A DNA stretch of 64,000 nt from a virus (Duplodnaviria; Heunggongvirae; Uroviricota; Caudoviricetes): the IMG/VR virus record IMGVR_UViG_3300006092_000059, positions 12,516 to 76,515 of that record; one strand, given 5' to 3'. Both the position numbers and the translations under genes were made by a program. Below, one piece after another: positions 2 to 51,920 of this stretch. Position 1 is the first letter of the stretch; every line of letters starts with the position of its first letter. The notes under the pieces were generated by a model. That model searched no databases. It was given only the letters and a program-made list of their open reading frames with translations, and was not told the DNA's origin.

Positions 2-535
2 AATAAATATGGATATGATTCTTTTAAATTTTTTATTTTAGAGAAATGTTCTAAAGAAATTCTACAGAATAAGGAGCAATATTATATTGATAATTTTAAA
101 CCTGAATATAACAAAAGAATAATTGCTGATTCAAGTAGAGGATTAAAATATGGCCCACAAAGTATAGAGCATAAATTAAAGACTTCTAGGAAATTAAGAA
201 AATTTTCTGATGAATTAGTAAAAGAAATTAGAAATCTAGCTAATTCTGGAGTTACCTATAAAGAAATAGGTGAGAGATTAAACATTAATCATAATTCTTT
301 ATCTAAATTAGTTAATGGTAGAACATATGTTGATTTACATAAAGGTAATATAAAACCTATAAATAAAAATATAAGATCTAAGCTTACAAAAGAGAAGATA
401 GTAGAAATTTATTATAAAGCTTTAAATAAAGAAAATCAGTATAAGTTAGCTGAGGAGTATAATGTAACACAAGGAACTATTTCTAGAATAAAAAATGCTA
501 AAAGAGACTATTCATGGCTAATTGTAGAATTATAA
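2..535 (+). CDS. GIY-YIG homing endonuclease, C-terminal part (5' end truncated by the window edge)
   Basis: Frame 2 translation reads ...KYGYDSFKFFILEKCSKEILQNKEQYYIDNFKPEYN, the end of a GIY-YIG catalytic domain as in I-TevI. It is followed by an HTH/NUMOD-like segment (GVTYKEIGERLNINHNSLSKLVNGRTY). The stop is at 533-535, overlapping the start of the giant ORF. Confidence 0.55.
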   Translation, partial: NKYGYDSFKFFILEKCSKEILQNKEQYYIDNFKPEYNKRIIADSSRGLKYGPQSIEHKLKTSRKLRKFSDELVKEIRNLANSGVTYKEIGERLNINHNSLSKLVNGRTYVDLHKGNIKPINKNIRSKLTKEKIVEIYYKALNKENQYKLAEEYNVTQGTISRIKNAKRDYSWLIVEL

Positions 536-3500
536 GAAATAAGGATGGTATTATAGAAAAGGTATTTGCTAGTAATGGCGAAGAATCTATTCTATATAAG
601 AATTTATTAGGATTAGTAAATAATCTAGCAGATGATAAATTTACTGATTTACAAAATCTATATAAACAATTCCAAGAAATTGGAATAATTAAAGGATTAT
701 CAAAATCTGAAATAGCTCTTGCAATTTATAATAGAATACATAGTCCTAATTTTTTTAACTTTTTTGGAGATTGGGTAAATGACCCTGAAAATTCATCTAA
801 AGTTGTAGATAAGAATGGTGAACCATTAATTGTCTATCATGGTACATCATCACAATTTGAAGAATTTAAAAAAGAAAATATTAAACGTGAAGATGATTTA
901 AGATTAGGAAAAGGTTTCTATTTTACTAATAAAATAAATGAAGCTGCTGATTGGGCTACTGATTATGCCTATCAATATGAAGGTGAAACTAGTAGTGATG
1001 TTTATAGGAGAGGATTAATAATGCCAGTATTTCTTAATATTAGAGAAAATAAAAAAGATGGTATTATAGATGAATCTGTTATTTCAAAAAATACTTATGG
1101 AGAATATGTAGCTTTTAATCCAAATCAGATAAAATCTATATTTAATAAAGGAGATTTTTCATCAAGTTCAAATGTGTTTAGTACAAGAACAAATGAACCA
1201 TCTGCTTTTAATTATAGTGGATTTACTAAAGAAGTTGGATTAAATAGAAAGCAAATAGATACTTCTAAAAAAGCTAAGATTAATAAAGCTGTTCAGAAAT
1301 ACAACCAAAAACATGGAACTTCTTATTATATTAAATGGGCTCAAGTAGGACAATCTAATCTAGAAACTTGGAATATTATAGATAATAAACCTGTTAGTTC
1401 TAAAAAAGAATTTGATTCTGCAGTTGATTTTAGTGTGTCTAAAGAAGATAAAGAACTTAATCATGCAAAATGGTTAGGATTGTGGAATTTTTATAGTGAT
1501 AGACAAAAGATATCTAAATCAAATGATGTTCTAAAAAGAATAGCTGATGATTCTACTTATTTGGGATTGTTAGCTAATAAACTATTACAACATAATCATA
1601 ACAATGTTGATATTCTTTTCCTTACAAGAGAGGAATTAAATGATTATATTGATAAACATGACATTAGATTTTATGAAGGAGTTAGTGTTAGTAATGTAGA
1701 GGGATTTTATGATCACAATACTAATCAAATTGTAATGGTAGATAAGCCTACAGGTAAACTTGCAGGTAATTTACTAGAAGAAATTATACATGCTCTTACT
1801 GTTCAATTTATTAAACATGATGAGAATGAAGGAAGAAAATGGAAAGAACTTTATCTTAAAGTAAAAGAAGAGTTTTCTAAGGAAGGAAAAGATAATTATT
1901 ACTTTACTAATGAGTATGAGTTCTTAGCAGGAGTATTAAGAGATGGTGAGTTTCAAAAATTATTAGCAGGTAAGCCTTCTAACTCAACTTGGTTCTTAAA
2001 CTATTTCCATGAGTTGTTTAATCACTTATTAGATTTAATGACTAAAGTATTTGGTTTAAATTTTAATGAACGTACTTTACTTTATGATGTATATGAGGCG
2101 GGTTCTAGAGTAATTGTACAATCTGCAAGAAGAGCTGATGATTTCTCAGGATTAAAGTCAGATGCATTTGAGTATGTATCTACTACTCTTACTGATGAAC
2201 AAAGAGAAATAATGAGAGATGAGATTTCTTATTTGTCAGAAGAATTAAATAAAGAGTATAACAAACCAGCTCTTGAAAAGATTACAAATGAGCTTTATGA
2301 AGCTTATTCTAAAAGACTTAAGAAAATTGAAGATCACAGATCCTATAAAGATATTAAGGAATTATTTAAAGGTGAAAAGGTAAGTAGATATAAAGCTATT
2401 ACAGATCAGTTAGAAAAAGCTTCACAGGCTAGTGCTACTCCAGAAGGATTAGCTAGAAAAGCTCGTGCTATAGCTTCTGCTATTGTACAGACTAGTTATT
2501 TATTAGATATTACTGCACCTCATATAAAAGATATAATTCGTGATAAGGATGCTGTTGAAAATATACACACACTTCAATATTACTTGTACACACTTTCAGA
2601 TTGGGAAATTACTTTTAATGAAGCTAAAGAACTAATAGGAGAAAGTAATCCTGCTGCTAATAGATATCTTGCTATTAACTTAGATAAGATTGAAAACATT
2701 TATAAAGATATTGCTAAGAATGATGAAACTGGAATGGTAGAAGCTTTAAAGCCTATATTAGTACCAGCAGGTGAGAAATTTATAGAATGGGCAGAGAGAG
2801 AAGAAGCCACTGTAGAAAGTATACGTGATAAAGCTGTTAGAAGAGGAGATACAGACTCAGCTGAAGTTCAGTCTAAAAGATTATTAGATCTTAGAGCTGC
2901 AAAAGAAAGAGTTGATTTCAACAATGATAAAGCTATAATTAAATTTCTTAAAGGTCAAATGGGAGATACTAATGTATTTTCTATGTATCTTGAAAGTTTT
3001 AGAGATAGTCCAGATCCTATTGTAGGTGGATTTACTGCTTTCATTAAGAGAAATCTTGATGAGATAGGTGGAGATATTGCTACTATGCAAATACACTTTG
3101 AACAAGAACTAGCTCCTATCTATAAACAATTAGGTGGAAGATTTGATGCTGAATCATTAGGAAAAGAAATAACTTTTGAGGATAAGAGAGTAGATGGTCA
3201 AGGAGTAGAGTATACTGTTCCTGCATTTCTTAATCCTTTTAAAAACTATAAAGCTGATGAAAAATTATTTAAAAATGCTATTTATAGTTTAGAAGAAAAA
3301 GTTAATGATAAAACAATAACTCCAGAGGAAGAACAACAACTTATTGAGAAGAAAAAAGAATATGCTAGATGGAGAGTTAGTAGTTTGCATAATCCATTTG
3401 TAGATGAGTTTTATAAAAAATACGAGTTATGGGATGATGAGATTGGGCAACTATTAAAATTAGATGTTGATAGAATATTTAGTGAAGTTGATAAGATCCA

Positions 3501-6500
3501 AGAACCTCATATATTCATAGGAAGTGAATTATCTCAAGATGAGTTAGACCAAATAGATGCTTTATACAAAGAGTATTTTTATTTAGGAAATATTACTAAT
3601 CTGGATGGTAGTGCAAAAACTGGAATTGAGTTACAGAAAGCTCTTAGAATGAAAGAAATGAGAGCTTTAAATGTTAAATTTTATGAGTGGGTAGATAATA
3701 TTCCAGCATTTGAAAAAGCTAAATTGGATCATCAGGAAACCTTAATTTCTTCTGGAATCTTAGAAGGAAGTATAGAGTTTAGAGATGCTATGTATAAGTG
3801 GGAAGAAGATAATACTAGGTCTTTTACAGATCCTGCTTATTATGCTGAAAGAGAAGGTAAGATAAGAAAGTTAAAAATTCTTATGTCAAGAGCTACTGAT
3901 GCTAAACTAAAAGAATCTATATTAGCTCCTTTGTATAAAGAACTAATTGACCAAGTATATGGATTAAGAGATGAAGATGGACAACCTGTTGGTAGTGAAA
4001 TTAGTGCATCTAAAACTAAAAGACTCAAGGAAGTTCAAGAACAAATAGAAGCTGAAAGAGAGAAATTTACTGGTATTTCAGGACTCAATGATGATGAAAA
4101 AGAAAGACTTAGTGAGTTATATGATAAGAAGTATTCTGAAGGTTTAAATACAGCTGAGGAAGAAGAATTCAATAATTTAATAGCACAGTCTGATAAACTT
4201 GGAATGCATAAAAAAGATAGAGCTGAAATAATTTCATTATTTACAGAACTAAGAAATATGCAGTCAAGAGTTCCTACTCCTTACTATGTAGAAAGTTTTA
4301 ATAACAACTCAAGTAGACTTGGTATTACTTTGGATGATAGAGGTAATATTCAAGAAGGAGCTGATTTTATTTCTATTCTTGATAGTAGTAAATTATTCAG
4401 ATTATTAGATGACCCACAATTTAGAACTTGGTTTGAGGCTAACCATATTCAAGTTTTAAGATGGGATAAAGATTCTGGAGGTAAAATTCCTAAATGGGAA
4501 AGATTATATCAATGGAGTAAAGTAGTTCCTAGCAATCCTGATTATATTAAGAGAAGACCTGCTTATAAATATTCATATAGAAGAGTTAAAGATGAATATA
4601 GAACTGAAAGAATTGTAGGCAAGACTGTTGATATAAAAGGTGACTGGTTGCCTAAAACTGTAGAAGAAGGTGGAAGTGTTGATTATAGAAATGAAAAATT
4701 CTATGCTTTAAAAGAAAGTGCAGAATCTGGTAATCAGCGTAATAAACTAATATATCAATACTTACAAACTAATTTAAAATATCATTTTAAAGTTCAGGAT
4801 GGAATTCCTAATGTTAATAAATTAGGACATGATTTGCCTAAAGTCAGAAAAGAAACTTCTGCTCGTAATCTAGATCTGTTAAAGAAACCATTAGAACTTC
4901 CTGGCTTAATGTGGGCTAGATTTGTAGATTATTTGAGGTCACTTCGTGAGTATAATACAGATAGTGGAAACTTTGAAGAAGTAGATGGTGAATTAGTTTC
5001 TAATGATTATCAATTAGTGTATGCAGATAAATATGGAACTGAGCTTAACTCAATTCCTATGAAGTATATAACAAGAATGGATGCTGAGAATGTTTCTTTA
5101 AATACTCCTAGATCTATAATGAAGTATGCTTATGCAGCTGCTACTAATAAAAAACTAATAGAAATATCACCTATTGCCCGTACTTTACAAAGAGTGTTAG
5201 ATAATCCAATTAATGCTCCTATTGATGTTAAAAAGAAAATACGTGGTAATACTAAGCAATCTCCTATATTAGGATCTAATAGAAGAAAAGAAGCTGTTGA
5301 TTTTATTATTAAGAGAGAATTTGAAGGATATCAAAAAGCCTATGAGTTAGGTAAATTTGCTGATAGTATGGTAAGTTTACTTAAAAGATTAGGTAGTTGG
5401 TCTTATCTTAAATTTAATATTCCTTCATCTATTGCAAACGTAGTAAATGCTGTTAATCAAAACTGGATTACTGCTGGACAAGGATTTTATTCTTCCAGTG
5501 ATTTTGCTATGTCTGCTACAGATATGTTTAGTAGATTTATTCCAGCATGGCAATCTGACTATTGGATAAATGAGCTTGGAACTAAAAGTCTTGAGGGACA
5601 AATGGCTGAAAGATGGGAATTTATGCAATCTTCAAGTATTGAGGAAGAAGCAGGAGAAAAGTTTGGAGCTAGTATATTGAAAGACTTTGCTGGATTTAAT
5701 TGGATGTTTAATCACAGAGAATGGGGTGAATATTATGTTCAAAGTAGAATTTGGTTAGCTTATCTTAATGGGACTAAAGTAGAACAAACACTTCCTGATG
5801 GTAGTCTTAAAACTCTAGCATTAAAGGATATTTATGAACTTGATGATAATGGTGTAATCAAACTAAAAGATGGTGTATCTGAAGATTGGGGATTCAAAGG
5901 TGAGGAGTTTCTGAAATTAAAAAATACTATTCAGAAGACTATTAGAAACACTCATGGTGCTTATGCTAACTTTGATAAATCAATGGCTGAGCAATATACA
6001 GCTTATAACTTTGCTTTATTCTTAAAGAAATGGTTTATAAGTATGTTTATGCAAAGATTTTCTGCTTCTAATGTAAAAGTTAGTAAAGGTGGAATTACCT
6101 CTACACCTAGATTTAATACTGATGCAGGTTATCAATGGGGATATTATATGGCAGGATTAAATGCTGCTAGTAAACAATGGCAAACTGGACTAAATAACTG
6201 GGCAGATTTAACAGCTGAAGAGAAAGCTTCACTATGGAGAATAGGTCATGAATTAATGGTGGTATTAGCTGCTAGTTTTATAATTCGTATAATAGCAGGT
6301 ATTGATTATGATGATAAAGATCCTTATAAATCATTAAAGGATATGAATTGGTGGGAACTTCAAATGTTATATCAAGTAATGCGTTTGCAAGTAGAAACTG
6401 AAACTTATGTCAGCCCTACACAGTATGCAGACTTTACATTACAATTCATGGCATTTGAGGCTGCTAAGAAGTGGGGTAGATTACTAATATACATAATCAC

Positions 6501-6663
6501 ACAGGAAGAGTATAAAAGAAAAACTGGAGATTATAAGAAGGGTGATAAGAAATGGAAAGCTCAATTCCAGAGAGCTACAGGTTTGCAAGGAATTAGTAGA
6601 ACATTTGATAAGCCTGAAGATTTAGTAAAATCTTATGATAAGAATATTAGGCCTCATATTTAA
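514..6663 (+). CDS. Giant polyvalent (probably virion-packaged or injected) protein with an N-terminal PARP-like H-Y-E ADP-ribosyltransferase domain; long coiled-coil body and a C-terminal hydrophobic segment
   Basis: Uninterrupted 2049-aa ORF. Residues ~100-210 carry IVYHGTSS ... LGKGFYFTN ... YGEYVAFN. These match PARP catalytic HGS ... GKGIYFA ... YNEYIVY (the His, Tyr and catalytic Glu positions). A TM-like stretch LMVVLAASFIIRIIAGI lies near the C-terminus. Confidence 0.8.
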   Translation: MANCRIIRNKDGIIEKVFASNGEESILYKNLLGLVNNLADDKFTDLQNLYKQFQEIGIIKGLSKSEIALAIYNRIHSPNFFNFFGDWVNDPENSSKVVDKNGEPLIVYHGTSSQFEEFKKENIKREDDLRLGKGFYFTNKINEAADWATDYAYQYEGETSSDVYRRGLIMPVFLNIRENKKDGIIDESVISKNTYGEYVAFNPNQIKSIFNKGDFSSSSNVFSTRTNEPSAFNYSGFTKEVGLNRKQIDTSKKAKINKAVQKYNQKHGTSYYIKWAQVGQSNLETWNIIDNKPVSSKKEFDSAVDFSVSKEDKELNHAKWLGLWNFYSDRQKISKSNDVLKRIADDSTYLGLLANKLLQHNHNNVDILFLTREELNDYIDKHDIRFYEGVSVSNVEGFYDHNTNQIVMVDKPTGKLAGNLLEEIIHALTVQFIKHDENEGRKWKELYLKVKEEFSKEGKDNYYFTNEYEFLAGVLRDGEFQKLLAGKPSNSTWFLNYFHELFNHLLDLMTKVFGLNFNERTLLYDVYEAGSRVIVQSARRADDFSGLKSDAFEYVSTTLTDEQREIMRDEISYLSEELNKEYNKPALEKITNELYEAYSKRLKKIEDHRSYKDIKELFKGEKVSRYKAITDQLEKASQASATPEGLARKARAIASAIVQTSYLLDITAPHIKDIIRDKDAVENIHTLQYYLYTLSDWEITFNEAKELIGESNPAANRYLAINLDKIENIYKDIAKNDETGMVEALKPILVPAGEKFIEWAEREEATVESIRDKAVRRGDTDSAEVQSKRLLDLRAAKERVDFNNDKAIIKFLKGQMGDTNVFSMYLESFRDSPDPIVGGFTAFIKRNLDEIGGDIATMQIHFEQELAPIYKQLGGRFDAESLGKEITFEDKRVDGQGVEYTVPAFLNPFKNYKADEKLFKNAIYSLEEKVNDKTITPEEEQQLIEKKKEYARWRVSSLHNPFVDEFYKKYELWDDEIGQLLKLDVDRIFSEVDKIQEPHIFIGSELSQDELDQIDALYKEYFYLGNITNLDGSAKTGIELQKALRMKEMRALNVKFYEWVDNIPAFEKAKLDHQETLISSGILEGSIEFRDAMYKWEEDNTRSFTDPAYYAEREGKIRKLKILMSRATDAKLKESILAPLYKELIDQVYGLRDEDGQPVGSEISASKTKRLKEVQEQIEAEREKFTGISGLNDDEKERLSELYDKKYSEGLNTAEEEEFNNLIAQSDKLGMHKKDRAEIISLFTELRNMQSRVPTPYYVESFNNNSSRLGITLDDRGNIQEGADFISILDSSKLFRLLDDPQFRTWFEANHIQVLRWDKDSGGKIPKWERLYQWSKVVPSNPDYIKRRPAYKYSYRRVKDEYRTERIVGKTVDIKGDWLPKTVEEGGSVDYRNEKFYALKESAESGNQRNKLIYQYLQTNLKYHFKVQDGIPNVNKLGHDLPKVRKETSARNLDLLKKPLELPGLMWARFVDYLRSLREYNTDSGNFEEVDGELVSNDYQLVYADKYGTELNSIPMKYITRMDAENVSLNTPRSIMKYAYAAATNKKLIEISPIARTLQRVLDNPINAPIDVKKKIRGNTKQSPILGSNRRKEAVDFIIKREFEGYQKAYELGKFADSMVSLLKRLGSWSYLKFNIPSSIANVVNAVNQNWITAGQGFYSSSDFAMSATDMFSRFIPAWQSDYWINELGTKSLEGQMAERWEFMQSSSIEEEAGEKFGASILKDFAGFNWMFNHREWGEYYVQSRIWLAYLNGTKVEQTLPDGSLKTLALKDIYELDDNGVIKLKDGVSEDWGFKGEEFLKLKNTIQKTIRNTHGAYANFDKSMAEQYTAYNFALFLKKWFISMFMQRFSASNVKVSKGGITSTPRFNTDAGYQWGYYMAGLNAASKQWQTGLNNWADLTAEEKASLWRIGHELMVVLAASFIIRIIAGIDYDDKDPYKSLKDMNWWELQMLYQVMRLQVETETYVSPTQYADFTLQFMAFEAAKKWGRLLIYIITQEEYKRKTGDYKKGDKKWKAQFQRATGLQGISRTFDKPEDLVKSYDKNIRPHI

Positions 6664-6725
6664 TGTTAAAATATTTGGAAATTAAAATTATTGTATTTAT
6701 ATTTGTAAAATAAAATTAAAGGATA

Positions 6726-7025
6726 ATGGAAACAACACAAGAAGTTCAACAAGAACAACCAATTCAATTTGCATACAGACCTGATGCAAAAATTACAATT
6801 ACACTTGAAGGGTGGCAATTTAACCAACTTCAAATGGCATTAAAACCTTTTGAAGGCCCTTTGGCTACTATTAATAACATTCATAACTTTATGATTCAAA
6901 CAGGGATTTCTAGACCTGTTTATATTAAAGATGTGGATAAGAATGGTAACTTAAGAAGTGATTTCTGGGAAGCACCTAAAGAAGAAACAGCACCAACTCC
7001 TAAAATAGAGATAGTGCAAAGCTAA
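6726..7025 (+). CDS. hypothetical protein
   Basis: 99-aa ORF directly after the giant gene on the same strand, followed by a terminator-like hairpin. Confidence 0.45.
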   Translation: METTQEVQQEQPIQFAYRPDAKITITLEGWQFNQLQMALKPFEGPLATINNIHNFMIQTGISRPVYIKDVDKNGNLRSDFWEAPKEETAPTPKIEIVQS

Positions 7026-7044
7026 AATCCTTTATCCCGAGGTG

Positions 7045-7079
7045 AGGGGAGTTCAGAAATGAGCTTCCCTTTTTTATTT
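7045..7079 (+). terminator. rho-independent terminator candidate between convergent gene blocks
   Basis: GGGGAG (7045-7050) pairs with CTTCCC (7063-7068) in a 6-bp stem including one G-U, with a 12-nt loop. It is followed by TTTTTTATTTT at 7069-7079. Confidence 0.45.
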
Positions 7080-7376
7080 TATAGAGTCTTTAAATCTTTC
7101 TTGTATAGAGGAAGGAAAGGTTGAATAATATTTTGAAAGCCTTTCAAATAAAATATCTAATTGATCTTGAGTAAGATCATTTTCATAAACAGTAAAATAC
7201 TCACATTGTTTTCCCTTTTCACACTTTGTAAATGTGTAAGTTCTTTCATCTTTTCTTCTAATTTTTTCTTGCTCTATTTTCCAATCTTCCATGAATTGAG
7301 CAGTTTTATTTTTATATGGCATACTACTTAGGTTCAAAGTCAAGTCCATGTTCTTTAACATAGTTACATATTTCAA
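7074..7376 (-). CDS. hypothetical protein (start may be the internal Met at 7322, immediately after the SET gene stop: TAGtATG)
   Basis: ORF in the same orientation as its neighbours. Its 5' 50 nt overlaps the upstream gene unless the start at 7322 is used. Confidence 0.4.
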   Translation of the reverse strand: MKYVTMLKNMDLTLNLSSMPYKNKTAQFMEDWKIEQEKIRRKDERTYTFTKCEKGKQCEYFTVYENDLTQDQLDILFERLSKYYSTFPSSIQERFKDSIK

Positions 7377-7704
7377 AATAATTAGAAGTTATTTCTTCTC
7401 CAGCTTTGATATTTTGTTTAGCAAATGTGCCCTCTTTATTGTCATATGTATTAGGAGTAGTAGAATGATTAATATGTCTAGCTTCATCTATACATACTAT
7501 CCATAAATTATTTTCTAGGTAAGCGTATTTATACAAAAATTTTGTTTCTAACTCATTCATTAGTTTCACAGAATCAAGTGAGTATTCTACGTCCATTCCA
7601 GGAGTAAATTCCCAAATCTTAGTATTTTTAGGTATTAAGTTTTTAGCAAATAAACCTATTCCTTTTCCTTGTGATTCTTTTAATTCTATTTCTACTTTTA
7701 ACAT
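7324..7704 (-). CDS. minimal SET-domain protein (putative protein-lysine methyltransferase, vSET-like)
   Basis: GKGIGLFA (GxG AdoMet motif), ARHINHSTTPNT (corresponds to RFINHSCxPN, with Cys replaced by Thr) and GEEITSNY (corresponds to ELTFDY). 126 aa, similar in size to chlorovirus vSET. Confidence 0.6.
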   Translation of the reverse strand: MLKVEIELKESQGKGIGLFAKNLIPKNTKIWEFTPGMDVEYSLDSVKLMNELETKFLYKYAYLENNLWIVCIDEARHINHSTTPNTYDNKEGTFAKQNIKAGEEITSNYFEICNYVKEHGLDFEPK

Positions 7705-8558
7705 AATTCATTAATATTTAAAATATCAATACTATTATCTCCATAATTAGTAACAATTACTTTATCTCCCTTGCTTGCAATTCCATGTGGAAAATCAAAT
7801 CTTTTTATTTCTCCTTTGTTCTCAAGTTTATCATTTTTTAATATAAAGTGTAATAAACTATCTTGACCTTGTAATGTAATAAATCCATTCTCTCCTGTTA
7901 AAGCAAGACAATCTGTTTGCCCATAAAATGGTAATTCAGCTAATTTTTTAAAACTAGGAAGCTCATATAAATACAAAATAGAATCAGTAATTTGTATAGG
8001 ATCTAATGATGGCCTACTATCAGATGTAGCTAATAATAATCTATTATTTAATAATAATAATAGATCTTTTGGATAATAATCAAAATTCTTAAATACTTCA
8101 TATTCCCCTGTTGGTAGATTAAAGATTAAACATTCTCTTCTTTTAGTATCAGTATTTGTAATAATAACATTATCCTGATCTATTATTCTACAACCATGAA
8201 ATTGATTAAAGTCTTTTCTTACTATATCTTTTACAAAAGATAATTTTCTATAATACTTGTCAACTTTATAAACTGATATACAACAAAATTCACTTCTTAT
8301 TGCTCTATTAGAAGTCATTATAATTCCATCCTTATAATCCATTAAATCTGGATGATAAGTTGTTTTTATCTCATCTATAATCACAGGATCTTTACTAATA
8401 TCTATTAGATATATAACTTTACCTAAATAGGAAGCAACTGCAATTAAATTATCATCAATAAAACATACAGCAGTAGCTGTGGCATATCTACTTCTTCTAC
8501 CAGCATATACTTTGTAGTATCCAGTAAGATCTATATTAGGAAGTTTGAATTTCATCAT
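7698..8558 (-). CDS. hypothetical protein, YVTN/NHL-type beta-propeller-like repeats
   Basis: C-terminal VIVTNYGDNSIDILNI resembles YVTN beta-propeller repeat signatures. Similar repeated segments occur through the protein. Confidence 0.3.
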   Translation of the reverse strand: MMKFKLPNIDLTGYYKVYAGRRSRYATATAVCFIDDNLIAVASYLGKVIYLIDISKDPVIIDEIKTTYHPDLMDYKDGIIMTSNRAIRSEFCCISVYKVDKYYRKLSFVKDIVRKDFNQFHGCRIIDQDNVIITNTDTKRRECLIFNLPTGEYEVFKNFDYYPKDLLLLLNNRLLLATSDSRPSLDPIQITDSILYLYELPSFKKLAELPFYGQTDCLALTGENGFITLQGQDSLLHFILKNDKLENKGEIKRFDFPHGIASKGDKVIVTNYGDNSIDILNINELC

Positions 8559-9252
8559 ATTTTTTTATTATTTTTTCAGGATTTTTCCAAGTTTTACTTT
8601 TTACTCTTTGAGCTATAATTCTTTGATATTCTAATCGTATTTTAGACTTCGTATTAGTATCAGCTTTTATAGTAAGATTTCTATCATGTATTCTTCTATT
8701 AAAAATAATAGTAGTAAGAGTAGCAGATTTGGCTCTGTTAAAGGTTAATCTATGTAAAAATTCTTCATCTGCACTACACTTCCAATTTTCATAACCATTT
8801 AGTTTATTAAAAATAGATTTTCTTATACCTATTACTCCACATGCTATTTCTATTTTTGCACGATTCATTCTACCATTTAGTATAGTAAAGTCTTGAAATT
8901 TTAGTCTTACTACATCTACAACTCTTATTAGATTATAAAATGATTGAACTAGAGTAGGTAGCATAGTATCATCACTATCAAAAAATATTATATATTCATA
9001 TTTAGCCTCATTTACAATATTATTTTTAACAGAATATGTTCCTACATTTTCTTCAAAATAAAAAACTCTACATCGCTTATAAAATTCTTTATTATCTTGA
9101 ATACTCTTCAGTGTTCTTTCACAATGATCCACACCTATAATAATATCTATGTCAACATTAGTTTGTTGATTATAGATAGACTGAATACATTCTTTTAGGT
9201 ATTCAGGTGTATTAAAAGTTGGAATTATGATTGAGACTCCTTTATCTGACAT
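8536..9252 (-). CDS. glycosyltransferase family 2 (GT-A fold)
   Basis: N-terminus SIIIPTFNTPEYLKECIQSI ... DIIIGVDHCE is the typical GT2 opening. An FDSDD DxD-like motif is present. Confidence 0.6.
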   Translation of the reverse strand: MSDKGVSIIIPTFNTPEYLKECIQSIYNQQTNVDIDIIIGVDHCERTLKSIQDNKEFYKRCRVFYFEENVGTYSVKNNIVNEAKYEYIIFFDSDDTMLPTLVQSFYNLIRVVDVVRLKFQDFTILNGRMNRAKIEIACGVIGIRKSIFNKLNGYENWKCSADEEFLHRLTFNRAKSATLTTIIFNRRIHDRNLTIKADTNTKSKIRLEYQRIIAQRVKSKTWKNPEKIIKKYDEIQTS

Positions 9253-9974
9253 TGTTTATTATAATTATAAAATTCTTCAAGAGTTTTTGTCCTCTTTACA
9301 TGATCTCCACTTCCTCTTTCAATTTTTTCTTTCCATTCTGGTAAAGATCTAGTATAAATATGTTTTATCCATACAAACTTAGAATGATGCCTACAAATAG
9401 GCCTTTTTACTTCTAAACCATCTTCATTAATATATCTACCTTTAATTATAGCTTTATGTGGATCTGGAAAATTTATAACAGCAGATGGTCTTACAATAGA
9501 TTTAATATGACCATTAGTATGATATTGATTATATTTTTCTATTGGTTGTCTTGTTTCAAAGTAAGGGTCATTTCCATACATTCTCCATGATAATCCTAAA
9601 GCATCAAACTTACCATATAATTTTTCTAATATAGTAAGATCTTCTTTTACATTCATAGTATTAGATGTATAAAATTCATCCGTATCTATAAATAACATCC
9701 AATCTATTCCTGTATAAGGTATAACTTGTTCACATGCATGTTTATAAGCTCTACACTGACTTCCTACCTCATTATCTTTCCAAGTATATACTGAAACAAT
9801 ACCAGGTTTTATAATACCTTTATCAGTAAGTTTATTTCTTAATTCACCTATACAATTTTTACTACCATTATCATATATCATAAAATGGTCAAACCCCACC
9901 TTTATATGGTGGAGTAGCCATTCTTCTAAATATTCATTTTCATCTTTTATAATAAGACAAACTGCAGTTTTCAT
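9225..9974 (-). CDS. GT-A-like glycosyltransferase (Glyco_tranf_2_4 / GT92-like)
   Basis: CLIIKDENEYLEEWLLHHIKVGFDHFMIYDNGS pattern and an LFIDTDEF DxD motif. Confidence 0.4.
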   Translation of the reverse strand: MKTAVCLIIKDENEYLEEWLLHHIKVGFDHFMIYDNGSKNCIGELRNKLTDKGIIKPGIVSVYTWKDNEVGSQCRAYKHACEQVIPYTGIDWMLFIDTDEFYTSNTMNVKEDLTILEKLYGKFDALGLSWRMYGNDPYFETRQPIEKYNQYHTNGHIKSIVRPSAVINFPDPHKAIIKGRYINEDGLEVKRPICRHHSKFVWIKHIYTRSLPEWKEKIERGSGDHVKRTKTLEEFYNYNKQCQIKESQS

Positions 9975-10339
9975 TTTACTTCTATAAGTACTTGTTTTTT
10001 AAAGTTATAAATATATTTTGCATGGTTAGCATTCATTAAAAAATGAGATAATTCTTCACACCATATATCTATACTTAATTCACCTATAGTAGTTTTAATA
10101 CCTCCATAGCTATTAATAGTATAAGAATTAAAGCCTCTATTATTTATTAAAGCAGCTATAGTTCTTGTAGTAACTTGAAATAACTCTCTGTTAGGAACTA
10201 TTATATCAAAGTCATTTGGTTTTTCATCTTTAAGAAGTTTTTCTAAACAACTTCCTACTATCCATCCTTCTGATATTAGTAATAAACTAATAATTTCTGC
10301 AGGTAAATCTCTATAAAATTTATTCTTTATATTTTCCAT
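9971..10339 (-). CDS. hypothetical protein, minimal nucleotidyltransferase-like
   Basis: WIVGSCLEKLL ... NDFDIIVPN resembles the GS ... DxD core of Pol-beta-superfamily nucleotidyltransferases. Weak. Confidence 0.3.
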   Translation of the reverse strand: MENIKNKFYRDLPAEIISLLLISEGWIVGSCLEKLLKDEKPNDFDIIVPNRELFQVTTRTIAALINNRGFNSYTINSYGGIKTTIGELSIDIWCEELSHFLMNANHAKYIYNFKKQVLIEVK

Positions 10340-12078
10340 TAATTTATTTGTCTAAATGTAATTTCTGGATTATTTTCAAGCCATATACTTAATAATCTTT
10401 CAAGTATAAACGTATGAAAAGTATAATAATCTAGACCAGTTTGAAGTTTTAAAGCATCTGTTGGTAAGCCTGCTTTATAATTAGCATTAGTAAATGCTTC
10501 TTCTTTAAACTCAGTTTCTAATAATTCAATAGCAGGTTTTATTACCTCATTTATATATTTTTTGTATATAGAGTATTTTCCTATCCAAAAATTTGAATAA
10601 ATGATATTTTTAGGCTCAATTAATTTTAAATTAAGCTTATGACATATTTTAGTAAATAGACTCAAAAATCCTGGATGAGAATATTCCGTAAAAGCCAAAT
10701 AATGTTTTTTTATAAAACTAGGAGATAATCCTATTATATCAGGAATTCCTTCAGCTTTTAACTCATTAAATATCTTTGTTACTAACTTTTTAGGAAGTCT
10801 TGTTTTATATGGAAACTTCCAACTAAATATTCCTAAATAATCATTATCTTTAAAGTCATTATTATCAATTAAATTAATAATAGGATTATACTCAAATAGA
10901 TAACTTTTTTCCTCTACAGTTCTAATTGGGTTGTATATAGGAGTATATTCAGTAGATTGATCTAAAGTATAAGTTATTCCATAAATTTTTAAATCTTCTG
11001 GAGTAACTTCTGTTGATTCATTCATTAGGAATTCACAAGCTAATCTTAAATTATCAATTCTTTGCTCAAAATGATTATTAGTTTTTACAACTTCAGAAGC
11101 TTCTTTTCCTACTTTTTTGAAAGATCTATCTTTTACTAAACTTTTAACCCATCCATAATATTCAGATGTCTTCTCAGCAGGTAAAATTGTTGATACCTCT
11201 TTATCAATATAAAGAGAACTTCCTATTACAGGAATTTCTTTACAAGCAGCTTCTATTAGTTTAAGAGAACTTTTACATTCTGCAAATTCACTCTTTTCAA
11301 GTGGAGCTAATAAAATATCTATTTTATCATAAAGATCCATATATGAATCAGTAGATTTACCTTCTAAGACCTCTACTTCCATTTTTGGATTAACTTTAAA
11401 CAAGGATACAATCTTGTCCCATTTCTTATTAGGTTGATATCCTGCTATAGTAAATTTACATTTTTTTTGTATGTCACTATCATTAGCTAACTTTTGAACT
11501 GTAGTTCTAAGTAACTGCCAATCACTATAATGGGCTAATCCTCCACAAACACCTATAGATATCTTACCATTAGATTCTTCCTTTTTAGGAATGAACTGAT
11601 TTTCTCCTAAAGGTAGAAAATTAGGACTAATTGTTACATATTTATTAAAACTTACACAATGAGCAGCTAATCTTTGTGTTGATACAGTTACTATATCTGC
11701 AAGCACTATTAAACCTATTAAAGAACTATAATCAGTTTTACTCTGTATATGATTTTTAGGAAGTTCCCAAAAGTCATCAACATCTTGAACTAATTTAAAT
11801 CCATATTTAGATTTCCAGCCAGATATTTGAGCAATTGGATTAGAATAGATCCAATTTACCCAAACAATATCGTAGTTTTTAACTACTTCTTCTTGTAATT
11901 CATACTTACCTGGTTCATGTTCTAAAATATCTACCTCAATAATTGCCTTTTCTCCTTTTATTTCAATTTCTTTACCCCTTAAATAAGAAAGGGGAAGAGC
12001 CACACGGTGATACCTTGAGCCACTTCCCTTCTCTATTAATCCTAAAATTTTTACTTGTTTCATCTGGCAAATATACAA
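10339..12078 (-). CDS. GT-B-type glycosyltransferase-like protein with an extra C-terminal domain
   Basis: KSSLKLIEAACKEIPVIGSS resembles the GT4 E ... GLPLIEAMACGxPVI motif. The ~220-aa C-terminal extension is unassigned. Confidence 0.35.
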   Translation of the reverse strand: MYICQMKQVKILGLIEKGSGSRYHRVALPLSYLRGKEIEIKGEKAIIEVDILEHEPGKYELQEEVVKNYDIVWVNWIYSNPIAQISGWKSKYGFKLVQDVDDFWELPKNHIQSKTDYSSLIGLIVLADIVTVSTQRLAAHCVSFNKYVTISPNFLPLGENQFIPKKEESNGKISIGVCGGLAHYSDWQLLRTTVQKLANDSDIQKKCKFTIAGYQPNKKWDKIVSLFKVNPKMEVEVLEGKSTDSYMDLYDKIDILLAPLEKSEFAECKSSLKLIEAACKEIPVIGSSLYIDKEVSTILPAEKTSEYYGWVKSLVKDRSFKKVGKEASEVVKTNNHFEQRIDNLRLACEFLMNESTEVTPEDLKIYGITYTLDQSTEYTPIYNPIRTVEEKSYLFEYNPIINLIDNNDFKDNDYLGIFSWKFPYKTRLPKKLVTKIFNELKAEGIPDIIGLSPSFIKKHYLAFTEYSHPGFLSLFTKICHKLNLKLIEPKNIIYSNFWIGKYSIYKKYINEVIKPAIELLETEFKEEAFTNANYKAGLPTDALKLQTGLDYYTFHTFILERLLSIWLENNPEITFRQIN

Positions 12079-12686: not shown

Positions 12687-13144
12687 TAGTCATAAATTGG
12701 AAAAAAGTGACTACAAGTACCAAAAGATGTACCAAATAATTTTTTAATTATAAGATATTCTTCTTCAGTAATTTCTTGTATATTCAAATTACTAAAGTAA
12801 TCTTCCTTGCTATAGAAAGTTAAAGATTCATTAGTACCAAATCCAAGTTCATATTCTTTTCTTCTAAATTTATGATTCCATTTATCTGGTTCTTTTAAAT
12901 ACTGCTCATAGGTAACAATAACACCATGTTTATTTTCCTTTGAAGGATATTCAATATACTTATTATAAGAACTTATTTTATCAAATTGTTCTTCTGTAAC
13001 ATTTCCTACTTCAAAAAAGGTATCTAATATGTCTTCAGTTTTCTTTCTATTCTTAAGATAATCTGTCTCATTACATATTATAAAAGCTTTTACATCAAAT
13101 TCATCAGCGTAATCAGCTGACATCTTAATTAAATAATATTTCAT
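12686..13144 (-). CDS. hypothetical protein (N-terminus paralogous to the 13949..14458 product)
   Basis: MKYYLIKMSADYADEFDVKAFIICNETDYLKNRKK aligns with MKKYYLLTFNEDWADEHYVPALECFTEEDFNKWKK. Confidence 0.4.
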   Translation of the reverse strand: MKYYLIKMSADYADEFDVKAFIICNETDYLKNRKKTEDILDTFFEVGNVTEEQFDKISSYNKYIEYPSKENKHGVIVTYEQYLKEPDKWNHKFRRKEYELGFGTNESLTFYSKEDYFSNLNIQEITEEEYLIIKKLFGTSFGTCSHFFPIYD

Positions 13145-13962
13145 TAAATTAATTCATTTAAAGATTTTATTCGTTTATATCCAACATTATATCGTTGATT
13201 ATGTGGAGTATCATATAAGAAAGTACATATACCTGCTTTATTTAAAGCTATGAAATTATCATAACAATCATCTACAAAGATATCAATCCCACTCTCTTTA
13301 GCCACTTCTACTTTGGATTGTCCACTTCCTACACAATATACAGGTTTTGTTGGAAATCCATGCATATCAAGCCATTTAATTGTAGTTTCAACAGGAATAG
13401 GTCTAGATGTAATATAACAATGAGGTTCAAAAGGAATATCTGTTGGTTTTAACAAAGGTTTTAATCCTAAGTAAAAATCATTAAGAGTTCCTTTTTCTCT
13501 CATAGCATCAAATCTATTTCTAATTTCTCTATCAAAATACCAAGCTGTAGCTACATCTTTAATATTGTGAAGCTCTCTCCATGCATTAATCCAATCACAC
13601 AACACTTCATCAATATCTAAGCCTATTTTAGGTGTTGCTAGATAGTTGTGAGGTCTATCATCTCCTTGTGGATAAATCTTATAATAATCAACTAGGAACA
13701 TTGCATTACACATTACATGAGCTGCATGTAGCAATCCAGTTTCTTTATCAAAATCTTCTCCACTTTCAATAGCAGTAAGATGTCTTTTTAGACTTCCTAT
13801 TACTCTGCTCCATTTCATTCCTTTCCGCCAATTATTATCAGCATATTTAGCTGCTCCGAAGGTTAATACTTTTGCTAATTCATTAATAGCAGTAGGTGAG
13901 AGCAAATCCTGCCTCACCTTACCACTATCAAATCTTAATCCTTTGTCTTCATTCTGTTGCAT
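13144..13962 (-). CDS. bifunctional nucleotide-sanitising enzyme: N-terminal all-alpha dATP/dGTP-diphosphohydrolase-like (MazG-related) domain fused to a HAD 5'(3')-deoxyribonucleotidase
   Basis: N-terminus LRFDSGKVRQDLL ... AAKYADNNWRKGM ... LLHAAHVMCNAMFLVDY matches the phage dNTP-diphosphohydrolase N-domain pattern. The C-terminus has HAD motif I GLDIDEVLCDW, as in NT5C DxDGVL. Confidence 0.5.
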   Translation of the reverse strand: MQQNEDKGLRFDSGKVRQDLLSPTAINELAKVLTFGAAKYADNNWRKGMKWSRVIGSLKRHLTAIESGEDFDKETGLLHAAHVMCNAMFLVDYYKIYPQGDDRPHNYLATPKIGLDIDEVLCDWINAWRELHNIKDVATAWYFDREIRNRFDAMREKGTLNDFYLGLKPLLKPTDIPFEPHCYITSRPIPVETTIKWLDMHGFPTKPVYCVGSGQSKVEVAKESGIDIFVDDCYDNFIALNKAGICTFLYDTPHNQRYNVGYKRIKSLNELI

Positions 13963-16814: not shown

Positions 16815-17115
16815 TATGATATTCTTCCTTTAATTTTTCTTGTAATTCAAATAAAAATTTCCACTTCTCTTGATCTTTAATTTTATGTCGTTTAAATTCC
16901 CACAGTTGATGTTCTTCTGGAGTCATTAATATTATATTCTCTTTTTTAAGTCTGTATGAAGGATACAGTCCTTTTGGTAGTATATGAGAAAATTGCCAGT
17001 GCCATTGAGAATGCCCTTTTCCATGTAAAGGTAGTCCACTAATCTCAGATTTATGTTCACGTTCTTCCCAAATTATACTAAATAAATGCGCTTGATTTTT
17101 TATGTTATCCTTCAT
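16792..17115 (-). CDS. hypothetical protein, possible HNH-like nuclease
   Basis: His-rich core HGKGHSQWHWQFSHILPKG. Weak. Confidence 0.25.
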   Translation of the reverse strand: MKDNIKNQAHLFSIIWEEREHKSEISGLPLHGKGHSQWHWQFSHILPKGLYPSYRLKKENIILMTPEEHQLWEFKRHKIKDQEKWKFLFELQEKLKEEYHNGRSTRN

Positions 17116-17533
17116 TTTGTCTAAATATTACAAGCATAGATGGAAAAGGAGCAGAATTTTTACTCTTTCCAAATTTCAATCTACCCTTAATAAATCTTAT
17201 TTCTTGCTGTCCATAAATATATTCATGAAAAGCTATTGTATCAGTTCTTGCAGGTAGTAAAGCAACTACTACAGCTCCTTTTTGAGCTTCTTCATATGCT
17301 TTCTTTATCCATAATTTTGATTGATTATATGGAGGATTCATCCAACATATATCTTTAGACCAGTCTTGAACTAGTCCATTTTTCTTAACATCAAAGAATT
17401 TCTCACATTTGTTTGTATTAATATCTGCACAAACATCTAATGTAAATTTAAATTCTTCATTTAAGATTTCAAATAACCATTGAGGAGTTTCCCAAGTGTT
17501 ATTTTCACTACTAAACATTAATTCTGTATTCAC
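17105..17533 (-). CDS. dam: phage Dam-like DNA N6-adenine methyltransferase
   Basis: ETPQWLFE ... DVCAD ... WMNPPY (the NPPY catalytic motif). Small Dam_MT architecture. Confidence 0.6.
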   Translation of the reverse strand: MNTELMFSSENNTWETPQWLFEILNEEFKFTLDVCADINTNKCEKFFDVKKNGLVQDWSKDICWMNPPYNQSKLWIKKAYEEAQKGAVVVALLPARTDTIAFHEYIYGQQEIRFIKGRLKFGKSKNSAPFPSMLVIFRQNEG

Positions 17534-24305: not shown

Positions 24306-25982
24306 TTAATACAAACTATCTAGAATTCCATTACTATAAGCAAATTTCTTATCTCCATCAAATTCAATGTTATTTGCGATAACATCTTCTTTCTTGGTAG
24401 CTTCTGCTATTTGCTCTTTTCTATGTCTAATATAACCAATTAAATAATTAGCTACATCTTTTCCTGTAGTATCTTCGAAATCATAATTTCCAAAGTAATC
24501 AGAAAAACCATGTAGAATATCTTCTAATGAAGGTTTTATTTTACGACTAATAATTTCTTTTGTATATCTTTCTGCAAAAGTAACAATTCCTACACAAATA
24601 AACAACCAATTAGATATTTTTGTGAAATTAAAAGTTGGAGTATGTATTCTAAATTCTAAGGTACGATTTGCACTGAATATTAAAGAATTAAAATTTACAA
24701 GATAGTATCTTGTAGGTATGCCCCATTTTTGCCCACCAAGAGGGTGAATAAGAGAGGTCATATTATAAGAGTCATTCATTTCTGGAACTTTCCCATCAGT
24801 TAAAAACTCAAATATTTTATTAAAATTCTTTCTTACATCATTTGAAAATTCGTGCTTAGTATTGTATATCTTTTTGTACAAAGAGTTAGTCATTATTCCT
24901 ATATTAGGAAGTCTTTGATTGTATCTCTTCTGTTTTCTTAAATATTTTACTTCATCTGATTTATATAAAGGAAATATAGAATAAATTTCATCTTGGATAG
25001 TTTGCATTATTATCCAATATGCTAGAATTGTAAGTTCATCATATTTTATATTACCAATATGTATATGCATTGAACATGTAGTATCAAACTCACATTTACT
25101 GTTGAGTTCACCACATATTCTTTTAATAGCTTGTAATCCTTTGTCCCCTTGCATAGGAACTGTTGTATATTCATAAGGCTCTATACCAGAAGCTCTTCTT
25201 AAACTACCATCTTTTAAAGGAACTAATCCTAAAGGCCCTAAAAGCTTTTGTGGAACAGTACCATTACAAGACTCTAGCTCAATACCAAATGTTTTTCCAA
25301 ACAAAAGTTTGCTAAGTTCTGATGTACGCTGATTTGATGGATACACTGTTTTATCATACATATCTTTGATAGTACGAAATGAAGGATTTCCTGCTGATGC
25401 ACTATAATCAAATGGTAGATTTTTATATCTTATAACTCTGGGAGTTACTATACTTTTTAATTCATCTTTATCAAGATTACTTTTTTTGTAGTAGAGGTCA
25501 TTCCATTTACATGGAATATATCCCATTGCTAAAGCTATTTTTTCATTCAGACAGGCTGTTGTTTGGGAAGTATGATATCTTTCAACTGTTTCTACAACTT
25601 CTTCAGTTCTTTTAAAGAAAGCTCTATTTCCTTTAGTGTCAATAAATCCTTCTATAAGATCTTTATTTTGTTGTAATTCTTCTATTAATTCATATTTACC
25701 TGTAGTAAAATTTAAACCAATCTTACCACTTGATAATCTATACCATTCTCCATCAGAAGCATCATCAGAATACCCTATCCAGAAACAGGTTACGCCTTTT
25801 TCATGATATTCTTTATGATTCTTATAATAGATACATTTACTTCTTGGTACAACTTTTCCTTCAACTGTTTTTACCTGTTTTTCCTGAGTAATTTCCATAC
25901 CTTTCTTTTTTTTAGAAGACAATTGCCGTTTCGGAGTTAACTGGATTTTGGCTTTTTTGCTCTTCTTTTGTAATGTGCTCAT
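24306..25982 (-). CDS. amidoligase (COG2170 / YbdK / GCS2-like carboxylate-amine ligase) with a Lys-rich N-terminal tail
   Basis: KTFGIELESCNG matches the YbdK TLGIELE substrate/Mg site. CSMHIHIGN matches YbdK GQHVHVGC. The first 28 codons (KKSKKAKIQ ... KKKKG) overlap the GATase gene by 70 nt; an alternative start is at 25898. Confidence 0.55.
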   Translation of the reverse strand: MSTLQKKSKKAKIQLTPKRQLSSKKKKGMEITQEKQVKTVEGKVVPRSKCIYYKNHKEYHEKGVTCFWIGYSDDASDGEWYRLSSGKIGLNFTTGKYELIEELQQNKDLIEGFIDTKGNRAFFKRTEEVVETVERYHTSQTTACLNEKIALAMGYIPCKWNDLYYKKSNLDKDELKSIVTPRVIRYKNLPFDYSASAGNPSFRTIKDMYDKTVYPSNQRTSELSKLLFGKTFGIELESCNGTVPQKLLGPLGLVPLKDGSLRRASGIEPYEYTTVPMQGDKGLQAIKRICGELNSKCEFDTTCSMHIHIGNIKYDELTILAYWIIMQTIQDEIYSIFPLYKSDEVKYLRKQKRYNQRLPNIGIMTNSLYKKIYNTKHEFSNDVRKNFNKIFEFLTDGKVPEMNDSYNMTSLIHPLGGQKWGIPTRYYLVNFNSLIFSANRTLEFRIHTPTFNFTKISNWLFICVGIVTFAERYTKEIISRKIKPSLEDILHGFSDYFGNYDFEDTTGKDVANYLIGYIRHRKEQIAEATKKEDVIANNIEFDGDKKFAYSNGILDSLY

Positions 25983-48352: not shown

Positions 48353-48445
48353 TGTTCTGTGTCATTAAATATTTTCTAGATTTACCTAGAATTAATACAT
48401 GAATTGTTTTTGTTCTCTTTAATTTAATCATAAATTCAATTTAGT

Positions 48446-48520
48446 GGTTCCTACAGGATTTGAACCTGTGACCTTGACATTATGAGTGTCCTGCTCTAAC
48501 CAGACTGAGCTAAGAAACCT
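48446..48520 (-). tRNA. tRNA-Met (anticodon CAT; could be an Ile-lysidine type)
   Basis: Reverse complement GGTTTCT-TA-GCTC ... GAGC ... anticodon loop CTCATAA ... T arm ACAGG-TTCAAAT-CCTGT ... acceptor AGGAACC. Cloverleaf by hand. Confidence 0.7.
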
Positions 48521-48524
48521 TTGT

Positions 48525-48721
48525 ATACCTGGATGGAATCGAACCAACTCACTCTATTACGTAACCTTGTGATGTATTCTGATATTTTTGAAAAGTTACC
48601 TCTTCGTTGAATATACTCTAACATGGAAGGTGTAATAATCCCCCCGTTTCATACTCTTGTAAGAATATAAAGCGTGGGGAGATTACATAAAAATAGGCTT
48701 TGCCACTAAGCTACAGGTATG
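48525..48721 (-). tRNA. tRNA-like gene apparently split by a ~126-nt insertion (intron-containing tRNA, disrupted tRNA or pseudogene); anticodon unresolved
   Basis: The 5' half at 48721 downward reads ATACCTG-TA-GCTT-AGTGGCA-AAGC-C-TATTT(TT). The 3' half at ~48563-48525 reads ...AATAG-AGTGA-GTTGG-TTCGATT-CCATC-CAGGTAT-A. The acceptor halves ATACCTG/CAGGTAT are perfectly complementary, and D and T arms are present. The intervening sequence holds a 10-bp hairpin (TAATCTCCCC ... GGGGGGATTA). Confidence 0.4.
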
Positions 48722-48765
48722 CAGTGTTTTTTCCGCAATAGGAGAGACCACTAAACTCATTATCT

Positions 48766-51825: not shown

Positions 51826-51838
51826 TGTATAAATTTTG

Positions 51839-51912: not shown

Positions 51913-51920
51913 CGTATTAA

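Follow-up and report, generated by a model that had tools for sequence, protein, structure and literature searches.

The window analyzed here, the whole stretch of 64,000 nucleotides at positions 12,516 to 76,515 of IMG/VR virus record IMGVR_UViG_3300006092_000059 (Caudoviricetes), encodes a SET-domain protein of 126 amino acids (aa) on its minus strand. Judging from its sequence, we consider it very likely that this protein is a real, functional lysine methyltransferase dependent on S-adenosylmethionine (SAM), and likely that the phage carries its gene as an accessory one that came from cells. The overall reading that we favor, an active SET enzyme of the prokaryotic stand-alone family that is encoded by an accessory gene and acts inside the cell, is held with moderate confidence. 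The gene is as follows.

7324..7704, minus strand: SET-domain protein, 126 aa; open reading frame (ORF) from ATG to stop; predicted SAM-dependent protein-lysine methyltransferase

A preliminary description of this DNA, made from the letters alone, had pointed to three SET signatures, and all of them are present in the 126-aa protein: GKGIGLFA at residues 13 to 20, ARHINHSTTPNT at residues 75 to 86, and GEEITSNY at residues 102 to 109. That description had proposed a Pfam search and structural modeling as checks, and both support the assignment. The protein matches Pfam SET (PF00856) at E=3.7e-11 with 43.8 bits, against a gathering score of 22.4, and the alignment covers model positions 1 to 104 of 105; SET is the only Pfam domain found. 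Searches of PHROGs, NCBIfam, and PADLOC with the protein gave 0 matches. In a single-sequence (phmmer) search of the PDB, the SET domains of EZH2, SETD2-like, and KMT2 proteins were matched and aligned through the same motifs, and a profile built from 94 family sequences matched KMT2D/C and MLL1 at E of about 1e-14 to 4e-15, as well as EZH2 and NSD. The combined motif and profile match is far beyond chance.

The AlphaFold2 model, built on the 94-sequence family alignment, has a mean predicted local distance difference test score (pLDDT) of 92.3 and a predicted template modeling score (pTM) of 0.83, and by its structural matches the model has the fold of SET domains, a class defined by a beta-rich core and a C-terminal pseudoknot. 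Foldseek returned 323 PDB matches at E<=1e-3, with TMq between 0.52 and 0.70 among the 50 listed, and all 50 listed matches are SET domains. They include Schizosaccharomyces pombe Set7, EZH2/EZH1, MLL1, the chlorovirus enzyme vSET (3kma_A), SETD8, NSD, and G9a, with a Foldseek probability of 1.00 for Set7, EZH2, MLL1, vSET, and SETD8.

The residues expected of an active enzyme are in place. These are G15-I16-G17 (the GxG loop), N79-H80 (the NH of RHINHS), E103-E104, and Y109, the catalytic Tyr of GEEITSNY. Across the 94 family members S11, G17, N79, H80, N85, and E104 are invariant and G15, W31, D38, Y60, Y62, C71, D73, R76, E103, and Y109 are conserved in at least 90%; the phage protein retains every one of them. 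Alignment with EZH2 and KMT2D matches each functional element to its counterpart: the SAM loop (GxG), the NH pair in the pseudoknot motif, and, in the ELxF/YDY-type motif, the catalytic Tyr. Compared with the gene for its closest relative, P0002 (63% identical), the phage gene shows a nonsynonymous divergence (dN) of 0.28 and a synonymous divergence (dS) of 1.16, giving a dN/dS of about 0.24, a rough figure since dS is near saturation; the gene is most likely under purifying selection. It is because the conserved residues are all present and dN/dS is of this order that we regard activity as very likely.

In many eukaryotic enzymes the Cys of the NHSC motif in the SET core joins post-SET cysteines in a zinc cluster. 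The corresponding residue of the phage protein is Thr82, and no CxCx4C motif was found in the 17-residue tail (residues 110 to 126, FEICNYVKEHGLDFEPK) that stands in for the post-SET domain, so there is no post-SET zinc cluster. The preliminary description had noted a replaced "post-SET Cys"; the replacement is there, but the residue was misnamed, as it is the SET-core Cys that pairs with the post-SET cysteines. In the 94-member alignment NHSxxPN is the reading across the whole prokaryotic stand-alone family. The tail is modeled as two short helical segments (residues 109 to 112 and 114 to 119), with a pLDDT of 86 for residues 111 to 120 and of 58 for residues 121 to 126. The earlier idea of a minimal SET protein in a phage is thus borne out: a single domain with intact SAM-binding and catalytic signatures and no post-SET zinc module.

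By homology, SAM would bind in the pocket of the GxG loop (G15 to G17) and the NH motif (N79-H80), and the substrate lysine would come in from the opposite face through a narrow channel lined by the conserved aromatics W31, F33, Y60, and Y62. Y109 of GEEITSNY would place the epsilon-amine for methyl transfer. As in other minimal SET proteins, the channel would be closed by the 17-residue tail rather than by a zinc-binding post-SET domain.

To place the protein among its relatives, a single-sequence search of 5.8 billion proteins was used, which yielded nine matches: the protein itself, P0002 (63%, on a 1.3-kb AT-rich contig), three at about 50% that include a Bacteroidia metagenome-assembled genome (MAG), and the rest at 40 to 43%. 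The best cellular match is the chromosomal gene of the Bacteroidia MAG, with 51% identity. The nine sequences seeded a family profile. At E<=1e-5 it recovered no fewer than 2,396 clusters, most of 125 to 140 aa and nearly all within 120 to 150 aa, with SET as the sole domain. Several of these clusters, from Bacteroidia, Nitrospinae, and Patescibacteria, are already named "SET domain-containing protein" by NCBI or JGI, and NCBI also uses "SET domain-containing protein-lysine N-methyltransferase" for the family. When a single genome was scanned for each GTDB species, relatives turned up in at least 477 of the species, among them Cytophagales (48% identity), Adhaeribacter (44%), and Chitinophagaceae (42%), along with many Sphingomonadales, candidate phyla radiation (CPR)/Patescibacteria, Nitrospinota, Leptospiraceae, Bdellovibrionales, DPANN archaea, and Methanosarcina. 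The phage protein can be aligned over its full length with 93 family members (34 to 61% identity), and BLASTP against the Methanosarcina spelaei homologue gives 40% identity over 117 residues (E=7e-28). By these sequence comparisons, it belongs to a widespread prokaryotic family of stand-alone SET proteins that includes the Methanosarcina homologues of Go1-SET, where Go1-SET is assumed to be nearly identical to the M. spelaei and M. barkeri homologues that were compared.

In a neighbor-joining distance tree with 200 bootstraps, the phage protein and P0002 pair in 198 of them; a pattern scan of metagenomes for further members of this clade matched nothing homologous. The Bacteroidia homologue lies on an ordinary chromosome, not a prophage, near a protein with a type IX secretion system tail, two-component systems, and, about 1.9 kb off, an HU gene. 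The phage most likely captured its SET gene from a cellular genome, probably of Bacteroidota, as an accessory gene. Among cellular loci, the sole neighbor shared across phyla is a co-oriented histidine kinase immediately downstream of SET (L005, L069, L087, L094, and L110, with L129 listed alongside). These loci come from Methylomirabilota, Parcubacteria, Peribacteria, and others, and the pair lies around locus position 5000 to 7000 (10000 to 12000 in L005). The pairing may reflect a link of the family to two-component signaling. Three of the CPR loci (L087, L094, and L110) carry two adjacent, tandem SET paralogues.

The accessory status of the gene is apparent from a related 130-kb phage contig, L131, which keeps the glycosyltransferase (GT) genes converging on a polyvalent protein (identities to the window of 49% for the 579-aa GT, 49% for the GT92-like protein, 67% for a 272-aa protein, and 33% for the polyvalent protein) and has no SET, no propeller, and no GT2 gene. 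As SET is absent from this relative, in which the flanking gene order persists, we regard it as an accessory gene in a variable island. Such genes are rare in deposited phages: three family probes against the 50,697 phage records of INPHARED found one record only, the 636-kb uncultured phage LR756504.1 (39% identity). IMG/VR, in turn, holds at least 42 viral contigs with SET family members, at 26 to 43% identity to the window protein. Many of these contigs are 190 to 390 kb long, and their GC contents run from 24% to 66%, which implies diverse hosts; the neighbors of SET include portal, terminase, DnaB, Thy1, DHFR, and PhoH genes, which indicates that the contigs are genuine phages.

A Pfam scan of 115 neighbors in 22 representative viral SET loci found mostly replication, nucleotide-metabolism, and other nonstructural genes, with portal and terminase the sole structural or packaging ones. 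No Pfam family was enriched among the 115, no recurrent SET partner was seen across the 42 other viral contigs, and one sugar enzyme only was found, a GDP-mannose 4,6-dehydratase directly upstream of SET in L011. Immediately after the gene for P0002, the closest relative, comes one for a PglD-like sugar acetyltransferase. A general link between SET and sugar metabolism, which the window, L130, and L011 had suggested, was set aside on the count of one in 115, and by these comparisons the GT association is local to the window phage and not a family trait. The sole viral SET neighbor found across lineages is phrog_3704 ("ferredoxin," with no Pfam match), directly upstream in two of three lineage groups and about 2.7 kb upstream in L027; it is uninformative, and the part of the window that was compared, its first 20 kb, does not contain it.

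Among the viral relatives, a subgroup (L021, L022, L025, L029, L031, L033, L034, L036, and L041) has NW in place of NH (RFINWS) and ELTFPF at the catalytic Tyr motif, a Tyr-to-Phe change. These ORFs are conserved in nine contigs with shared neighbors, and the residues suggest that such copies may be catalytically dead or repurposed.

In the window, SET is part of a minus-strand string of genes, listed here in the direction of transcription.

10339-12078, minus strand: 579-aa glycosyltransferase (GT579), first of the string (phrog_7162 glycosyltransferase, E=7e-41); then a 1-nt overlap
9971-10339, minus strand: 122-aa protein, no Pfam, NCBIfam, or PADLOC match, weak phrog_4400; then a 4-nt overlap
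9225-9974, minus strand: GT2_4/GT92-like glycosyltransferase, 249 aa (Glyco_tranf_2_4, E=1.5e-13; Glyco_transf_92, E=7e-9); then a 28-nt overlap
8536-9252, minus strand: GT2-family glycosyltransferase, 238 aa (Glycos_transf_2, E=1e-19; PHROG GtrB-like); then a 23-nt overlap
7698-8558, minus strand: 286-aa beta-propeller (weak NHL match in Pfam, E=0.0043, short of the cut-off); then a 7-nt overlap between its stop and the start of SET
7324-7704, minus strand: SET, second-to-last of the string; then a 1-nt gap
7074-7322, minus strand: 82-aa ORF (ATG at 7322; or 100 aa from a TTG at 7376), last of the string
7044-7071, no strand assigned: terminator-like hairpin with a 12-bp stem (consensus scan and sequence; pattern match only)

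Because successive genes overlap or abut, the string suggests a single transcription unit with translational coupling. SET lies on the 3' side of a variable island of glycosyltransferases and would be transcribed together with the island and coupled to it in translation. The preliminary description had placed SET directly upstream of a glycosyltransferase block; this has to be reversed, since transcription runs from right to left and the minus-strand SET gene lies downstream (3') of the block. The hairpin sits in the 48-nt gap of two convergent units: on the plus strand the polyvalent protein and a 99-aa ORF, whose end is at 7025, and on the minus strand the string, which ends at 7074. A sigma-70 promoter scan gave counts not above those of shuffled sequence, as expected for DNA of 29% GC with likely Bacteroidota-type promoters. 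The 82-aa ORF has no Pfam, PHROG, NCBIfam, or PADLOC match. The 122-aa protein contains a GS...DFD pattern, which we take to resemble the minimal nucleotidyltransferase motif, the Pfam, NCBIfam, and PADLOC searches having matched nothing and phrog_4400 only weakly matching.

The gene that overlaps the start of SET encodes an all-beta propeller by its AlphaFold2 model (pLDDT, 96.3). Foldseek matched only generic WD40, YVTN, and Kelch propellers at a TM of about 0.6, and the family comprises 139 clusters, nearly all "hypothetical," with D71, H121, H258, N271, Y272, and N275 invariant. EZH2 and MLL have propeller partners (EED and WDR5), and an analogous partnership with the phage SET protein was considered. 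It was rejected, as GT2 is the conserved partner and the propeller and SET each occur without the other. Propeller homologues directly follow GT2 in three of four loci (L132, L133, and L135, including a 332-kb contig), whereas in the fourth, L134, the sole trace of GT2 upstream is a weak fragment of 56 aa. In none of the four does SET lie downstream of the propeller, and no propeller homologue was found in the 42 viral SET loci. A probe of IMG/VR with the propeller gene found nothing. From gene order, then, the propeller belongs with GT2 and not with SET. GT2 and the overlapping propeller of about 285 aa (window 7698-9252) form a conserved two-gene module, and the invariant His, Asp, and Asn residues of the propeller suggest an enzyme rather than a scaffold.

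Window genes for a family A DNA polymerase (PolA) with a 3'-5' exonuclease, a primase, a DnaB-like helicase, a ribonucleotide reductase, and a nicotinamide phosphoribosyltransferase (NAMPT), together with seven tRNAs and the 2049-aa polyvalent protein, establish its phage origin. It also encodes an amidoligase/glutamine-amidotransferase pair, and its GC content is 26 to 33% throughout. Deposited phages include none that resembles it in DNA sequence; PolA is nearest to crAss-like phages of Bacteroides and the human gut, at 28 to 34% identity. Since PolA is crAss-like and the best cellular SET match is from Bacteroidia, a Bacteroidota host is plausible from the sequences. Assemblies of two sequencing runs, SRR1027651 and SRR1025216, both yielded this phage, a 76.5-kb contig carries it as well, and the SET sequence was recovered on three contigs from at least two sequencing runs.

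Several characterized SET proteins offer comparisons. The substrates of Go1-SET, from Methanosarcina mazei, are the chromatin protein MC1-alpha, with Lys37 as the probable site, and, in vitro, histone H4 (PMC3980110). Like members of the Go1-SET family, the phage protein is a lone SET domain of about 120 to 140 aa without pre-SET or post-SET zinc modules, and it shares with stand-alone prokaryotic SET proteins the signature MLxVKT, GIGLFA, WEF, YxY, CxDxARFxNHSxxPN, and GEEITxDY. Unlike them, it is encoded by a phage, within a glycosyltransferase island, and the pair that it forms with P0002 differs from the rest of the family in having its own tail motif (FEIC...) and R76-H77 where R-F is usual. 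To our knowledge MC1-alpha is not present in bacteria, and the phage enzyme must therefore have a target different from that of Go1-SET.

The preliminary description had also found the protein reminiscent of chlorovirus vSET, which holds at the level of fold and architecture and fails at that of sequence. Like vSET of PBCV-1 (A612L; PDB 3kma), the phage protein is a virus-encoded minimal SET (about 120 aa in vSET) without flanking zinc domains, and an NHS motif without Cys is common to the two. Between 3kma_A and the phage model Foldseek gives E=1.4e-6 and a TMt of 0.75, with only 23% identity. No chlorovirus vSET chain was among the 38 single-sequence PDB matches at E<=1, and the prokaryotic stand-alone SET proteins of cells are far closer to the phage protein than vSET is. 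Given the 23% identity and the lack of a vSET chain among those 38 matches, the sequence comparison indicates that the phage protein is not an orthologue of A612L. In concept the two are alike, each being a virus-borne lysine methyltransferase that could act on chromatin proteins of its host. The substrate of vSET, H3K27, is eukaryotic, and we know of no H3 in the presumed bacterial host. In infected cells chlorovirus vSET methylates H3K27 and host transcription shuts down (PMC3089700); the enzyme is reported as a dimer in the title of Manzur et al. 2003 (via PMC10117894).

The secreted SET nucleomodulins of bacteria, Chlamydia NUE, Legionella RomA/LegAS4, Burkholderia BtSET, and Bacillus anthracis BaSET (PMC3980110, PMC10117894), share with the phage protein the SET catalytic core and are likewise prokaryote-encoded lysine methyltransferases. 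Whereas they are effectors that are delivered into eukaryotic cells and act on histones, the phage protein consists of the domain alone and comes from a virus that infects a bacterium, with no eukaryotic target in view. SET domains have already been annotated in phages, and the present gene is a further, well-supported example. UniProt and BFVD contain [quoted passage not shown] entries (A0A6J5L8Y2 and A0A6J5P3I3), and ORF62 of Stenotrophomonas phage vB_SmaM_Ps15 is listed by the SET domain name only (PMC9025141). These proteins, and the SET proteins of CroV and mimivirus, have the same fold and a similar size, and they are products of uncharacterized accessory genes, named by domain alone; the window phage differs from the annotated ones in its lineage, its PolA being distantly crAss-like. 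A literature search for a characterized phage SET protein found none, only passing mention of the domain name.

What the enzyme does is a matter of weighing. The SET protein has no hydrophobic N terminus or signal peptide, and this, together with the mostly nonstructural neighbors in other phages, favors an intracellular role, in which it would act on lysines of cytoplasmic proteins in the host during infection. The likeliest target would be the lysines of an abundant, basic nucleic-acid-binding protein of host or phage, such as an HU-like nucleoid protein. The nucleoid-associated, ribosomal, and virion proteins that the preliminary description named as candidate targets are guesses. A basic DNA-binding protein is the best single one because, among the only characterized relatives outside the nucleomodulins, Go1-SET acts on MC1-alpha and vSET on H3K27, and a nucleoid-protein target is accordingly put forward by analogy as a tentative proposal. 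It is unlikely that the captured gene serves as an "epigenetic-style" takeover tool, which would methylate an HU-like, defense, or signaling protein and so reprogram or disarm the cell. If true, such a takeover would be a bacterial counterpart of the silencing of host chromatin by chlorovirus vSET, and the first case in which protein-lysine methylation by a SET protein is shown to matter in an interaction between phage and bacterium.

Several points weigh against the reading that we favor. The target is proposed purely by analogy. Histidine kinases, not nucleoid proteins, adjoin SET in some cellular lineages, and this hints at substrates of another kind. Neither the phage nor its host is in culture, and the host assignment draws only on a PolA identity of about 30% and the best SET match. 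The Bacteroidia MAG is the next partner in the tree in only 60 of 200 bootstraps, and the tree supports no donor lineage beyond the P0002 pair. Finally, the coupling to glycosyltransferases here, the PglD-like gene beside P0002, and the dehydratase in L011 could mean a role in glycans or the virion.

That last possibility would have SET work with the glycosyltransferase and propeller island in decorating virion proteins or another shared substrate, with methyl-lysine and glycans placed on the same capsid, tail, or surface proteins. SET is embedded in a string of three glycosyltransferases and a propeller with overlapping stops and starts, and the sugar genes directly next to P0002 and the L011 SET point the same way; yet L131 keeps its GT genes without SET, the GT2 and propeller module occurs without SET in other large phages, and a single one of the 115 neighbors in 22 viral loci is a sugar enzyme. 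Accessory genes, moreover, gather in the same variable islands, which makes adjacency weak evidence, and we regard a shared substrate as rather improbable. We also see little chance that SET is a counterdefense or takeover effector that methylates lysines of a host defense or signaling protein, or preemptively of phage proteins, whether to disable a sensor or to block a lysine-directed modification by the host, such as ubiquitin-like conjugation or acetylation. An accessory gene of a variable region that is missing from the nearest relative, L131, does fit the usual pattern of conflict genes, the same phage encodes the 2049-aa polyvalent protein with an ADP-ribosyltransferase domain, and cellular SET homologues repeatedly lie just upstream of histidine kinases. 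The protein has no PADLOC match, however, and no defense or antidefense neighbor, and the searchable literature holds no antidefense SET protein, so that the idea is speculative.

The gene might, alternatively, be a passenger with no role in infection, recently captured from the host, possibly inactive or of no consequence, and in the course of being lost. Its absence from L131 and its rarity in deposited phages (the one record in 50,697) would suit a passenger, and the NW/F subgroup (L021, L025, L029, and L031 type) shows that viral copies can lose catalytic residues. The window protein, however, has all its catalytic and SAM-binding residues intact, comparison with P0002 (63% identical) gives a dN/dS of about 0.24, the same sequence stands on three contigs from at least two runs, and close packing couples the gene to its neighbors in the string. 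Such a gene is also kept by at least 42 viral contigs that differ widely in GC content, and we see little chance that it is a mere passenger.

Of the thousands of small SET proteins in bacteria, archaea, and their viruses, very few have a known substrate or role; the characterized prokaryotic ones mostly target eukaryotic histones, with one archaeal case acting on a chromatin protein. On the reading of an active intracellular enzyme, the phage protein is a small, soluble-looking, and easily expressed handle on what small prokaryotic and viral SET proteins methylate, and a substrate that is methylated in the infected cell would presumably be one whose methylation is useful to the phage. The locus alone reveals no new mechanism; it adds an example from a crAss-related lineage that is accessory and probably cell derived.

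Other features of the window are as follows.

514-6663, plus strand: polyvalent protein, 2049 aa; ADP-ribosyltransferase domain ART-PolyVal at its N terminus (Pfam, E=2.3e-14)
13144-13962 and 17105-17533 (L006 187-600 and 3743-4561), minus strand: 272-aa protein and Dam-like methylase, upstream of the glycosyltransferase island
24306-27654, minus strand: adjacent amidoligase, 558 aa (Amidoligase_2), and class-II glutamine amidotransferase, 580 aa (Pfam)
48444-60457, minus strand: seven tRNAs (Met, His, Leu-UAA, Gln, Trp, Lys-UUU, and Arg-UCU), scattered among small ORFs

On the source contig (L006 11042-20381), the polyvalent protein is preceded by a protein of the GIY-YIG type, one of 217 aa, and a giant ORF of 4097 aa; a crAss-like phage may eject these proteins as "cargo" or use them for takeover. 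The 272-aa protein carries the N-terminal domain of dATP/dGTP diphosphohydrolases (dGTP_diPhyd_N), and with the Dam-like methylase it hints at manipulation of the nucleotide pool or DNA modification. The pairing of amidoligase and amidotransferase recalls predicted phage systems that modify peptides or metabolites. In L011, the GDP-mannose 4,6-dehydratase (583-2907) is matched in two stretches with a weak LAGLIDADG match between them (E=3.4e-4, below the Pfam cut-off), which may represent an intein or a homing-endonuclease insertion. Most of the window tRNAs decode codons ending in A or U, consistent with a genome of 29% GC.

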